This document shows, one piece after another, positions 16,274-62,521 of a DNA stretch of 64,000 nucleotides (its first letter is position 1; every line of letters starts with the position of its first letter). Origin of the DNA: Octopus vulgaris (Eukaryota); the NCBI GenBank assembly GCA_951406725.2, contig OX597818.1, forward strand, positions 113,832,001-113,896,000, read 5' to 3'. Made by a program: the position numbers and the translations under genes. The notes beneath the pieces were generated by a model. It searched no databases and was not told where the DNA came from. It worked only from the letters and a program-made list of their open reading frames with translations.

Positions 16274-16603
16274 AACAGATCAATATTTAAGAGATGAGGA
16301 ATTATATACATTATTTACATTATTTACAGTTGACGGATATTTGTCCTCATCTTGTTTGTTGCTAAGACAACGTTTCGGCTGATATACCTTCCAGCCTTCA
16401 TCAGGTGTCTTGGGGGAATTTCGAACCTGGGTTGTCATTCCTAAGGTATTAACATCGAAAAATGCCTTAGGAATGAGAATCCAGGCTCGAAATTTCCCCA
16501 AGACACCTGATGATGGATGGAGGGTGTATCAGCCGAAATGTTGTGCTAGCAACAAACAAGATGAGGACAAATATCCGTCAAATGTAAATAGTGTAAATAA
16601 TGT
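16274..16603. mobile_element. Penelope-type inverted pLTR element with a minimal hammerhead in each arm, a one-sided tail and an 11-bp TSD
   Basis: Inverted arms about 16307-16450 / 16460-16604. Minus-strand HHR at 16364-16409 (GACAC CTGATGA A GGCTG..CAGCC GAAA CGTT GTCTT) and plus-strand HHR at 16502-16547. About 33 extra nt on the left arm. Direct repeat ACTATCAGTTA at 16263-16273 and 16604-16614. Confidence 0.85.
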
Positions 16604-16694
16604 ACTATCAGTTATAGTCAAAATTCTTTCGCCAGTTAAGTTGGAAAATTCAATCAAATGAGGATTTTATTTTTGCATGCGTCATTCGGTTTAT

Positions 16695-28319: not shown

Positions 28320-28382
<63 letters not shown>

Positions 28383-28386
<4 letters not shown>

Positions 28387-28697
28387 TAAATTAGAGATAA
28401 AACCACTATTAGGCAAATCAAACAGTGAAAATCATAAGCCAAAACATAGAAATAAAATTGATTAAAAAATATAAAATATAAAATATAAAAATCCAATTAA
28501 AATATTTAAATTAAAGTTAACATTTTTTAAAATTATTAAATTATTTTAAAAAATTTTAACTTTAATTTAAATATTTTAATTGGATTTTTATCTTTTATAT
28601 TTTTTATATATTTTTTAATTAATATCATTTCTATGTATTGGCTTATGATTTTCACTGTTTGATTTGCCTAATAGTGGTTTTATCCCTAATTTAATAT
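28383..28697. repeat. AT-rich long inverted repeat (one arm recurs at about 55690-55782)
   Basis: ATATTAAATTAGAGATAAAACCACTATTAGGCAAATCAAACAGTGAAAATCATAAGCC is mirrored by GGCTTATGATTTTCACTGTTTGATTTGCCTAATAGTGGTTTTATCCCTAATTTAATAT. Confidence 0.85.
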
Positions 28698-28793
28698 AAT
28701 ATATATTTATACTATAAAATTAGATTTAATCCTAAATCTAATTTTTCCCTGTAAGTTTGGATTTACTCCCGAATATTATTATTAATTTATATA

Positions 28794-54866: not shown

Positions 54867-57181
<2,315 letters not shown>

Positions 57182-57183
<2 letters not shown>

Positions 57184-57765
57184 CTTTGTTGAATATATTA
57201 TATAGTCTGTGACTATTTCTATTTTCTCACTTGACCGCTGGTTGCGGAAAATTTTTCTTGAATTTTTTGCTACCCTATATTGATAAATAAATAATTTTTG
57301 ACTAATTCTGAAATTGTATCATCAGTTTATATTTGCTGCTGAGTAGTTGGCGCGGTTACGTTGGATTTCGAAAAATTAGGATATATATACTCGGGGCTTC
57401 AGTGGTGTCGCCTCGTGGGTATATGTTCTCCTTTTCTTTTGGTGACTTTGCTGATGAAACAAGCCAATCGCAAACGGATTTAATTTAATTTAATTAAGTT
57501 CGATTGCGTTAAAATTGTTGAAACCTTGCAGGGTACAAAGTTGAAAGGGATAAATGTTTTTATTTCTCCTTTAGCTTTCAGAATTACTACTATTTTTGCG
57601 GTTTGAGTTTGGCTGCTCTTTTCAAGTGAGTTGAAAGACCTGTCAGGGTCGTTCCTTAATACTTTGTTGAATATATTATATAGTCTGTGACTATTTCTAT
57701 TTTCTCACTTGACCGCTGGTTGCAGAAAGTTTTTCTTGAATTTTTTTGCTACCCTATATTGATAA

Positions 57766-57768
<3 letters not shown>
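57182..57768 (+). mobile_element. Retrozyme-like unit: 478-bp period, about 108-bp terminal direct repeat, intact type I hammerhead
   Basis: TACTTTGTTGAATATATTATATAGTCTGTGAC...CCCTATATTGATAAATA at 57182-57289 and 57660-57768; (TA)n on both sides; no protein-coding signal. Confidence 0.85.
57444..57542 (+). ncRNA. Canonical type I hammerhead ribozyme
   Basis: Stem I GACTTTG (57444-50) / CAAAGTT (57536-42); CTGATGA (57451-57); stem II AACAA/TTGTT with an inner CAATCG/CGATTG helix; GAAA (57520-23); stem III CCT-TGCA-GGG; GUA site, predicted cut after 57535. Confidence 0.9.
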
Positions 57769-57841
<73 letters not shown>

Positions 57842-57857
57842 CATATATATATATATA

Positions 57858-57903
<46 letters not shown>

Positions 57904-58387
57904 TATACACATATATACATATATATATATACATATACATATATATATATACAAAATAATAATATCGATAATATATAAATATATGCATATATACATACAT
58001 ATATGTACACACCTACATATATATGTATATATACATGCATATATGGGTACAGGACATCAAAAAAATGTTGAACACAATGAGAAACGAAAACATAAAAACA
58101 AAAACATAGAAACGAACATTTTTTCGAGCAAAGAAAAAAACCGAGAAACGAGACATACAACATAAAGAATATTCCCCTTCTTCAGTTGTCCCTGTTACAT
58201 CTACTCCGAGTTCCGAAGGTAAGGAAAAATATATATATTCTATATATATATATATATACACACTAATATTAGCAGAAATAACAGAGTGACTCAAGGTTTG
58301 AGAGTTTCTTGCTTTTAGCACTTATCTTATTATATATCAGTTTATACACTCGGTAAACGCGCTCGCACGAACGCAGACACATGCGCG

Positions 58388-58456
<69 letters not shown>

Positions 58457-61400
58457 ACACACACACACAGTCACCTGTATATGCAACGAAATAGCTTTCT
58501 TTTGAATATCGTTTTCTCATTCGTCATTCATTCGGCATTTCCTTGCAAATAACGAAATATTAAACTTCAAATAAAAAAAAAAAACTTGTAATCTTGATAT
58601 GATATATAGATATAATGCAAAAATTATCACAGGTATTATCACAGTATCTCAAAAGAAACCTTTGTAATTTTTAATTAAGATAATTGAATAGAGGTGAGAG
58701 AGATGTAGCAAGGAAAGGAAGTGAAAGTGACGATGTGCAGCGGGAGAAAGACAAAATGTTTTAGAGGAAATTACAGAGCAAGCTTTATGAACGAAGTTTA
58801 TTAGAGAGAAAGAAAGCACATAGCAGTGAAAGAGAGGAAGACGTTAAAAAACACTAACTTCCATATATTATCTAACGATAAACGCAAATTCAGCTGATAC
58901 AGAAAACATTCTAGTGCTTTCATTTTTCCTAAGAACGTAGTTAACTTTCTTGTAAGTAACTGTGATATGATAAATAGACTGAATAAAACTTTTCAAAAAT
59001 ATTCTCAAATTATCTCGAAGAAAATTCTGCAATCACTTATTTTCAATGAAAACAAACAATTGAGTAGGGCGCTGTGGAGTAAGAGAGAGGGAGAGATGTC
59101 ACAGTAACTAAAAATTAGTTTTGTGATTTATCTCAGTGAATAAAAGTTATTTTAAGATTGAAGCATGTACTTATCTTTAATTATAAAAGAATTTTAAAAA
59201 CCTTACTTTGATAAAATATATTAAAATCGAATTTATATAAACTTTCTAGACATTTTAGAGTTAAATAATAGCTTTCTATTAGTGACAGTTACATAATTTC
59301 AGTTAAATAACAAACAGATTTATAATAGATATACTTTTATTATTAGTTTAAATTTGAAACAACTTCAAATCATTCAACGACAACAGTTATTACTATTACT
59401 AAAGCCACCCCCGTTACAATTATTACTACCATCGCTATGACACACACTACCACCAGCACCACTACTGATACTATTACGAGAACCACTTGAACAATAGCAT
59501 TTAATCTAGCTATTGTTGTTGTTGTTGTTCTTGTTGCGAGATTGCTCCAGTTCAGCCCTATTAAGCAGATTTATGCTTAGAAGTGTTTCAGCCATGACTG
59601 TTCCGTCTTGCTTCAGGTGTAAAGTATCTAGCATTATATTATTCAGAATACTTTTTTTTTCCCATTTAAAAAAGACGGTATGATTTGAAGTAGATTTGGC
59701 TGTTATTTTCTGTATGTCAAACCTCGAGGTAGAAGTACGCTCGTTTGTTTGTATAATATTGTGTTCGTGAACAAAGTATTGATGTTAACATCCAATGATA
59801 TTCATCATATTTGTCAAGAGAATGACTTATTTGCAAAGTGGTTTAATGGCAATATCTAATTCATTGGTGCTTTTAACACCCTTCAAGCAATTGGATTAGG
59901 TTTCCAGTGTTAAGTTATCAAGTTCTCTTATTTTTTTGCAATGAGTCTGAGAAAGGGTCAAACTCTACCTTTCATATTCTGACCCAGTATTTTTTTAAAT
60001 AGTTTGTGCAGTGCTAGAGTGAGGTACACACTCTTGATAAATATTTTTCGGCAGATGTGCAGATATCCTGCGGTGAACATAGAATTGATACTGCCCACGA
60101 CTCTCCTTGAATTTTCTGTCTCTCCTTCTGCACGAAAAGCATAGCATAAAATACACTTAAAACGTTGCTCCACCAAAATGCCCCCAGAGCTGAACCTCCT
60201 CCCTTGCTAGTTTCTAGCTACGCTCTTGCAAACATTCTATAACTAAATTTTAAATACCTACGATCCACGAATTTTTTTATGAAATTCTCAACTCGACTCA
60301 ATAACGTTATATTAAAAAAAGTCAAACCAACACAGGAGCCTCTATGCAGTCTCTTGCTTTGCTTGAAATAATAATTAAATCTAGCTCAAATCACATTCCG
60401 TCGAGAAATCGAAGGATACAAAATTACGATATAGTATACTAAGCCCGTCTAGTAAGTTCTTTTTTTTAATAATTTGTTGATCTGATCATAGACTTACAAA
60501 ACTTTTATCGATATCTCTATTCCCCAAAATTACATGATCATCTCAGAGTATAGTGGAATGAGTTCAAATGAGGGTTTACTCGATGTGTACAATCAGAAAA
60601 CTAATCTGTTATCAACGATAAGCTATTTTGATAAATAAACATTATGTATTGTATTCGAAGATCATTTAAATAAACTATTTATCAGCGAAAATGTACGATA
60701 TACATGTTCACTTAGATTTTCAACAGTGTAATAAAAAATAACACCGAAAACTATATAAAACGTGTAACAAAAACTATCTTCATTTTCTTACAACTTCAAA
60801 TACTTTTCGTTAAAACTAGAGAATCACCCTTTATTGCTGATAAAAATAGATAATCGATTGGTATTTATTTATGTAGAAATAATCAAGACTTATGTAGATA
60901 TAATCAAGTTTAGTCTACCAATATGCCCTCCTTTATTTTTTAAAATAAAATACCTTTTTCATAATCATGCTTTCATTATATATGATTGAAGACTGAATAA
61001 CATATGCAATATACAAATAAAATTAGTTCAGACGAAGACAGGTGTGTGAACAACAAGCGAGTGTATTAGTTTGAGGCTCGAAAAAGTGAAGACCGAAAAG
61101 TTAGATCAGGTAAGTTACACTAGTATGATAAATAGATAAAATATATTTTGATTAAAGTTTACATCCTTAATAAATTAGATATACCTGCTTAACTTCTAAC
61201 AACTGCATGTAGCTTTGTTTCTGGTTCGCATATAAAATTTTCCACCAGTCCCAGAAGGTGATACTGTCCAATTTGTGAACCACCGTGAAGCATTGACTCA
61301 GTAACCTTTTTTTACTATCGTGTGTTATTTAATATACATAAAAACGCCACAGCTGATGATGATTATGACGATGATAAAGATGATGATGATGATGAGGAGG

Positions 61401-62018: not shown

Positions 62019-62521
62019 TATATACATACATATATGTCTCCTTAAGCGTTCAGAAAAATTTTACCATCGTCTTAACAGCCCCCATCGTTTGTTTTTATTG
62101 TTTTGTTCTCACTGTCCTGTTCTTGTTACCACTTTCACCCTCCGCAAAAAATCTCAAATTTTATTTAATTTGCTTTGCGGGAAGGACTGTTTCAACGAAG
62201 TCGCGTCTTGTCCTTACCTTTGGAACGCGAAGTAGTCGAAACAGGGACAACTGAAGAAGGGGAATATTCCTTGTGTTGTATGTCTTGTACTCTGTTTCTT
62301 TCATTGTTTGAAAAAATGTTCGTTTCTATGTTTTTGTTTTTATGTTTTCGTTTCTCATTGTGTTCCACGTTTTTTTTATGTCCTGTACCCATACATGCAT
62401 GTATATATACATATATATGTAGGTATGTACATATATGTATGTATATATGCATATATTTATATTATTTATATTATTATATGATCGAACGCTACGCATCCTT
62501 TTCCAAGTAACCTTTATATAT

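Follow-up and report, generated by a model that had tools for sequence, protein, structure and literature searches.

The 64,000-nt window analysed here, a stretch of the Octopus vulgaris genome, holds a 587-bp segment (57182-57768) that lies in a (TA)n tract, repeats its beginning at its end and encloses a hammerhead ribozyme, which raises the question of what kind of element this is and by which machinery it was inserted. Non-LTR retrozymes have been defined in coral, mussel and axolotl, with Penelope-like elements (PLEs) named as their likely carriers (PMC7229834), and a 2020 review described retrozyme repeats as lacking any conserved motif that would reveal the partner (PMC7761336). More recently, a preprint of 2026 reported co-occurrence of retrozymes and PLEs in 35 genomes, molluscs not being among those given in its accessible parts, and similarity to PLE pLTRs in Xenopus (bioRxiv 10.64898/2026.07.22.740005). 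No cephalopod retrozyme was found in the literature outside subscription journals and Repbase, judged mostly from abstracts. The accessible text and supplement of an Octopus vulgaris repeat annotation make no mention of ribozymes and list 190 PLE-class consensus sequences (PMC13282606), so the family may already exist as an unnamed consensus. We consider it probable that the segment belongs to a genuine retrozyme family which has moved in recent times and behaves like a non-autonomous PLE. The element class is already known; what is new is direct evidence, from the genome, for integration of a retrozyme in the PLE manner.

The insertion, its two characteristic 3'-end sites and its flanks are arranged as follows:

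57143..57181, no strand: (TA)n target tract on the 5' side, from sequence
57182..57768, plus strand: whole insertion, 587 bp or 1.23 units, 5'-truncated, ending at site B, from sequence and comparison of genomic copies
57182..57289, plus strand: partial second pass, the terminal redundancy, from alignment to 57660-57768
57290..57768, plus strand: one full unit of 479 nt; units in the family measure 471-494 nt, and deletion variants of 433 and 440 nt occur
57661..57675, plus strand: 3'-end site A, the short end; commonest junctions after 57668-57669, read through in the window copy
about 57763..57771, plus strand: 3'-end site B, the long end, where the window copy ends (57768)
57769..57951, no strand: (TA)n/(CA)n tract on the 3' side, from sequence

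The preliminary description, made from the window alone, had seen a 108-bp terminal redundancy about 478 bp apart, or some 1.2 copies of a monomer, in a non-coding segment within a (TA)n tract, and both observations stood up. The first 108 bp are a copy of 57660-57768 that is two substitutions and one indel apart, with a repeat spacing of 478 before the indel and 479 after it, and both flanks are (TA)n, within which no target-site duplication was discernible. No long ORF was found inside the element, which holds one 74-aa stop-to-stop frame on the minus strand. An ORF with reverse transcriptase (RT) and GIY-YIG domains is absent from the unit and from the spaces between tandem units, and identity as an autonomous PLE was rejected on this ground.

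Other repeats were observed in the window. Left of the element, at 57111-57142, a GC-rich hairpin is followed by CTAG and then by (TA)n, and the same sequence stands left of the retrozyme in another locus (L231). The hairpin and CTAG resemble the 3' end of a Helitron, and we take this to be a repeat whose TA tail is a retrozyme landing site. Directly right of the element, 57956-58228 forms with 62208-62477 an inverted pair of a ~270-bp repeat, 90% identical and located by TA tracts. Additionally, self-inverted segments of ~350 and ~305 bp occur at 28365-28716 and 16304-16608 (arm identity 92% and 88%), which are possibly palindromic mini-insertions or MITEs.

The ribozyme occupies a single stretch of the unit:

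57444..57542, plus strand: type I hammerhead, with stem I, CUGAUGA core, long stem II, GAAA, 4-bp stem III and GUA site

Stem I pairs GACTTTG (57444-57450) with CAAAGTT (57536-57542) over 7 bp, all core bases are present (CTGATGA at 57451-57457, GAAA at 57520-57523), stem II takes up 57458-57519 (58-62 nt, with an internal loop) and stem III is ACCT/GGGT, its loop being the palindromic TGCA. Cleavage at the GUA site is predicted after 57535. The intact type I hammerhead first claimed for this locus, with complete core, 7-bp stem I, long stem II and GUA site, is in full agreement with these features. Folding of 57440-57548 gave a predicted -28.5 kcal/mol (z -3.6), a stability reached by 0/200 shuffles, in a structure where stems I and II form and stem III does not. 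The Rfam comparison proposed along with the claim turned out negative: over 55000-60000, miRNA matches driven by (TA)n were all that appeared, and no hammerhead family came up at E<=1, the long stem II being the presumed cause. When the whole window was scanned for the core motif, five candidates emerged, with 7/7 stem I pairs only at 57444-57542; the four other hammerhead-like motifs were rejected, having 0-4 of the 7 pairs.

The genome of the animal itself showed that this is a multicopy family rather than the single-copy sequence that would have spoken against a retrozyme. In 2.8 Gb there are 118 exact matches to the 21-nt ribozyme core of the window copy, 638 degenerate hammerhead-core matches and 791 matches to the 3'-end motif (reversed controls 0), all of them counts of motifs and not of insertions, from which the family would comprise several hundred copies or more. 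A search with the element returned 83 matches from the best 40 of 2294 candidates, and 206 distinct loci were mapped after duplicate removal, taken among the matches listed and therefore leaning to the subfamily of the window copy and to contigs C1-C3. There are at least five subfamilies, ~70-99% identical to the window copy, and the GC content of the family is 0.33-0.36. Among 148 loci, 83 have a longest arm shorter than one unit, 59 reach one to two units and 6 exceed two, with tandem multimers of up to ~4.5 units at a ~480-nt period. The variable overlap and tandem multimers anticipated by the preliminary description were found in this genome-wide comparison, and its distinction from elements with fixed LTR or TRIM ends was correct, since 5' ends are scattered and the redundancy varies by copy. 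Identity as a plant-type LTR retrozyme or TRIM was rejected on this variable redundancy and on the type I topology. Furthermore, none of the 206 loci examined shows the unit as part of a longer element. The retrozyme-like nature of the family was supported by each genomic feature that was tested, with cleavage and circles as its predicted behaviour.

An intact hammerhead core is present in 108/148 loci, and at least two intact cores in tandem in 11/148. A unit-length RNA would be possible from these 11 loci only, because two intact ribozymes in tandem are needed, and the copy at 57182-57768, which holds one ribozyme, could not yield a circle itself. Assembled contigs under three organism labels carry the unit including the cleavage site, in two supposed RNA runs (organism A) and in two others of uncertain kind (organisms B and C); such contigs show neither strand, ends nor circles. 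As a separate observation, other hammerhead motifs with a short palindromic stem III were seen at L120:446 and 3048 (minus), L172:2170 and 922 (minus), L153:6054, L154 minus 6160 and L177:2343. These motifs, two of them as inverted pairs, would represent further ribozyme-bearing families of this genome.

The genomic copies are most informative at their ends. Their 3' ends fall at site A or site B, and the stretch from A to B constitutes a tail of ~95-100 nt. Site A, where tabulated, was terminal in 83 occurrences and internal in 129, and 204/215 outer 3' ends (148 loci) adjoin (TA)4+. The 5' ends are scattered over the whole unit, often with an inverted arm, and 27/77 plain 5' junctions are without (TA)n. 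The expectation of permuted copies with different start points was therefore right for the 5' ends and wrong for the 3' ends, which are fixed at A or B and not randomly permuted. Copies would not be freely permuted because reverse transcription starts at fixed sites and only its stopping point varies, and for the same reason the 108-bp overlap would be the mere truncation point of the window copy.

The inverted arms follow a near-strict rule. Head-to-head, two-ended insertions make up 90/206 loci, and their outer ends are one A and one B in 78/79 with both ends classed (p~1e-22 vs 50%). Where exactly two arms are present (n=78), 68 loci are A+B and one is B+B, A+A does not occur, and in nine one of the ends is odd; in the A+B loci, B terminates the longer arm 35 times and A 33 times. 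Outer ends were also A+B in 10 of the 12 loci with three or four arms, and an inner A+A pair in L027 is an exception to the rule. The 114 one-orientation loci end at B in 55 cases, at A in 50 and elsewhere in 9. Two side observations were made on these junctions. In three loci (L082, L099, L107) the copy passes into (TA)n at a minor third site, which follows TACTACTAT and is window-equivalent to ~57589-57593. L205 alone among 79 two-arm loci has arms that match the references of two different subfamilies, perhaps because two RNAs contributed to the insertion or because its 52-nt arm was mapped wrongly.

This pattern of ends has a counterpart among PLEs. PLE insertions are described as partial tandems that come with a 5'-truncated copy in inverse orientation and carry a tail of 30-40 bp at one of their ends (10.1101/2021.04.23.441226; PMC3846280), and in vitro work on an anole PLE traced the tail to the interval that separates two internal RT start sites and showed nicking and extension of both target strands (PMC11167929). 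In the octopus genome we found two young autonomous PLE families with RT, C-terminal GIY-YIG domain and intact ORFs of 781 aa and 775 aa, each with the CX4CxxC linker that marks the Neptune/Nematis type (10.1101/2021.04.23.441226). Both families end in (TA)n at two 3' sites, ~40 and ~33 nt apart, and the three inverted copies seen (L124, L147, L149) have one short and one long end each. The A/B ends, inverted arms and (TA)n target of the retrozyme point to the PLE tail and inversion signature, and so to PLE-type integration. The use of a Penelope-like RT, which the preliminary description had proposed, gains support from the A/B ends, the A+B rule and the (TA)n target shared with the two PLEs; the RT identity itself is what we infer from them.

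The 781-aa family (L142-L148, L154, L155) has an ORF1 of ~479 aa, 504-nt pLTRs that are 100% identical and a ~40-nt tail, and no hammerhead was found by pattern in its 3' region. The 775-aa family (L234-L237, L149, L151; e.g. G000:C3:5852200-5862199) has an upstream ORF1, a 4,270-bp tandem period, 76/76 scored protein hits at 100% identity and a minimal hammerhead-like motif with a CCGA core in its 3' region, at L234:9528. No sequence similarity between unit and PLE was detected by blastn and nhmmer in 46 loci, nor in 7 loci of the 775-aa family, a comparison that covers a sample of PLE loci, most PLE families of the genome lying outside it. The single nhmmer hit between the two (L114) was rejected as a link, being a short A-ended retrozyme fragment inserted beside another PLE.

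One locus joins the retrozyme to a PLE. In L231 (= L021/L023, one duplicated locus), an A-ended retrozyme arm lies head-to-head with the 775-aa PLE, with no gap and 3 nt of microhomology, and the PLE part is 5'-truncated, 98.5% identical to current copies and has its long end in (TA)n. A single complex that co-primed two RNAs would be expected to leave such a junction, which also conforms to the rule of one short and one long end. A nested insertion with deletion of the spacer has near even odds with co-priming, and is a real alternative because L004 keeps a (TA)n spacer between a head-to-head PLE and retrozyme and because of the plain 5' junctions without (TA)n described above. The fusion represents one of 114 plain 5' ends, and no second head-to-head fusion was found in 58 further loci; in L037 a retrozyme lies tail-to-tail with an older PLE. 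On this one case (n=1), the 775-aa Neptune-type PLE is a candidate partner.

If such a protein acts on the retrozyme, the RNA structure could offer the means of recognition. In addition to the hammerhead, four structured regions were delimited:

57318..57343, plus strand: conserved hairpin, with a compensatory pair in 3/15 units and one mismatch private to the window copy
57441..57465, plus strand: possible loop-loop pseudoknot, GGU 57441-57443 with GCC 57463-57465, 95.5% of cells paired
57598..57716, plus strand: conserved multi-helix domain around start site A (helices 57598/57716 and 57624/57710; hairpins 57633-57654 and 57680-57694)
57718..57753, plus strand: conserved hairpin just 5' of site B, holding an A/G site at 57729 (57251 in the first pass), from the covariation set

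The structure proposed over 15 units contains 87 pairs, 96.4% paired. Two-sided changes affect 13/87 pairs, among them pairs in all three hammerhead stems and in the hairpin that precedes A, against 7.9+-1.6 in shuffles (0/500 reach 13) and 1-5 in slid controls, a test that leans in favour of the structure as the 15 units are related and the structure was partly derived from them. Core variants in this set are a C at core position 4 in 3/15 units and loss of G8 in 1/15. The pseudoknot is conserved but without two-sided change, and is to be read as possible. Conservation is strong in the A domain and in the hairpin preceding B, where it shows more as unchanged sequence than as covariation. Both starts are found 12-20 nt 3' of a conserved hairpin. 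These features would suit an RT-binding element in the structured domain 3' of the ribozyme. The predicted circular fold has 61-68% of its bases paired (z -2.7 to -10.9; 8 units, 12 shuffles each), and the antisense strand in the same test also scores -4.5 to -9.5. Forcing the active ribozyme fold has a predicted cost of 0-14 kcal/mol over the circular minimum in 15 units, 5.1 in the window copy. Overall, the genomic data indicate that RNA structure is under selection in the family, as judged from comparison of its copies.

According to these data, the element is quite probably a non-autonomous Penelope-like retroelement of the non-LTR retrozyme kind, moved by a cycle in which we infer the transcription, cleavage and circularisation steps. 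A tandem source locus would be transcribed, and two hammerheads would cut out a ~480-nt unit to be ligated to a circle. A Neptune-type PLE protein, with RT and GIY-YIG endonuclease, would then bind the structured domain 3' of the ribozyme, nick a (TA)n tract and start cDNA synthesis at A or B. The RT would circle its template for 0.1 to 4.5 units and stop at a variable point, and whenever the second target strand also served as primer, synthesis from it would begin at the other site and add an inverted, head-to-head arm, so that the insertion has one A end and one B end. In this scheme, the window copy would be the B-primed product of 1.23 passes, with a single ribozyme.

The nature of the template is the least settled step of this cycle. 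The overlap had been attributed to reverse transcription going just over once around a 478-nt circular RNA; multi-pass copies and the PLE-type RT are in keeping with this, but truncation explains the overlap and a linear tandem transcript explains any single insertion equally well. A circular template, as proposed earlier for PLE tandems (PMC4209133), is likely but unproven. About 90% of passes read through the cleavage site, and no pile-up of 5' ends was found there: 7/185 arrivals stop within 5 nt (6.2 expected), and 4 against 1.9 expected (p=0.12) in a set chosen regardless of ribozyme. Adjacent passes are near-identical, with differences at 141/11,332 sites (1.24%, 54 insertions), the median divergence between insertions being ~6% in the window-like set, and in 8/36 tandem insertions the passes have in common a near-private allele, seen in no more than one further insertion. 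That tandems are homogeneous in every subfamily implies that one unit was copied repeatedly at some step, from a circle or by template jumps.

A strictly monomeric circle is disfavoured, because within-insertion divergence is not below that between nearest-neighbour insertions (1.35% vs 1.02%), L005 and L018 share two ordered differences between their passes, and site 57729/57251 is mixed A/G in 7/18 insertions of the window-like subfamilies, never being G in the other 21 covered. Three of the seven are mixed within one tandem arm and one across a probably separate arm. As an observation in its own right, this A/G site (loci L001-L027, L082) recurs in three sub-lineages, for which editing, a template switch or an RT hot spot may be responsible. 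If multi-unit templates were partially edited, mixed bases at this site would follow, but no family-wide A-to-I signature was found among rare variants (A>G 28/8519 vs T>C 35/12759, p=0.52).

These non-identical units fit an alternative in which the PLE machinery is the same but copies an uncleaved, linear transcript of tandem units, or switches from one linear RNA to another, and any circles are by-products. The 16 nt just 3' of the cleavage site, which take 19/195 stops against a mean of 5% (second highest of 30 bins, post hoc), would also suit it, as if some templates were cleaved linear RNAs. We nevertheless think it unlikely, since units within an insertion match their own subfamily in every subfamily, down to the near-private alleles in some cases, since linear copying alone only shortens arrays and only the 11 loci above have two or more intact cores in tandem, and since the ribozyme has been kept by compensatory change across ~25-30% divergence. 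With the circle retained as template, a more specific and rather doubtful proposal can be made, namely that the 775-aa PLE mobilises the ribozyme circle without shared sequence, through the folded RNA domain, that a complex with two active sites primes one strand at the near start and the other at the far start, even with two different RNAs as in the L231 fusion, and that the A/G site is the footprint in the genome of partial A-to-I editing of the template RNA.

It seems very improbable that the unit is instead the pLTR of an autonomous PLE still to be found, and its copies 5'-truncated or deleted derivatives. PLE insertions are mostly truncated, the loci read are 206 of several hundred, and in Xenopus pLTR matches to Repbase elements, almost exclusively PLEs, are given for 24/57 retrozyme families (bioRxiv 10.64898/2026.07.22.740005). 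The ~480-nt arrays, however, repeat up to 4.5 times without an ORF between, all of the at least five subfamilies keep a closed unit, and none of the 206 loci runs in sense from the unit into PLE coding sequence; the copy just downstream of an old, ~48% identical PLE remnant (L260) was read as a nested insertion. Amplification at the DNA level (rolling-circle DNA, Helitron-like, or unequal crossing-over as in satellites) is scarcely credible and already largely refuted, for although tandem arrays are present, the 2026 preprint favours local amplification for arrays (bioRxiv 10.64898/2026.07.22.740005) and a presumed Helitron-like end lies directly left of the window copy, such routes do not give dispersed short arrays, polar truncation, inverted arms, the A+B rule or RNA-structure selection on one strand.

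As a retrozyme integrated in the PLE manner, the element shares with animal non-LTR retrozymes a non-coding unit with one canonical type I hammerhead, a GC content of 33-36% and tandem copies (PMC7229834, PMC7761336), a self-paired circular fold (here predicted), coexisting PLEs and the lack of LTR, PBS and PPT anatomy, here judged from the variable ends. The ~480-nt unit is above the 150-450 bp of the 2020 paper and within the 51-972 bp of the preprint (bioRxiv 10.64898/2026.07.22.740005). It differs in its mostly dispersed copies of less than one to two units instead of long arrays, its very long stem II, the absence of detected similarity to PLE pLTRs in the loci compared, and cleavage and circles that are here predicted. 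The fixed A/B ends, inverted arms and (TA)n targeting were not found described for retrozymes in the accessible parts of these sources; the word 'tail' does not occur in the main text of the preprint, and 'inverted' is not applied there to insertions (bioRxiv 10.64898/2026.07.22.740005), and no report of a tail signature in any retrozyme was found in the literature, mostly abstracts, outside subscription journals and Repbase.

With the endonuclease-positive PLEs of the Neptune/Nematis type the retrozyme has in common partial tandems, the inverted 5'-truncated arm and an optional tail on one end, as well as two internal RT starts, a microsatellite target and a type I hammerhead upstream of the starts (10.1101/2021.04.23.441226; PMC3846280; PMC11167929). 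In contrast to them, it has no ORF, a canonical 4-bp stem III where they have a minimal hammerhead, a tail of ~95-100 nt, longer than the 30-40 nt that the papers give and that both octopus PLEs show, and both starts at the noted distance 3' of conserved hairpins. Plant LTR retrozymes and TRIMs are likewise small non-autonomous elements with a hammerhead and terminal redundancy (PMC7761336), whereas here the hammerhead is type I and not type III, redundancy varies by copy, and there are no fixed LTR ends or 4-bp TSD.

Lastly, the earlier proposal of PLEs as carriers rested on co-occurrence and pLTR similarity, whereas here the insertion junctions carry the PLE signature. The counts suffice for a near-strict rule of one short and one long end, and the candidate partner has intact young ORFs. 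Which RT moves animal retrozymes, and how the tails and inverted arms of PLEs arise, would thereby become testable with a 480-nt RNA and one protein.
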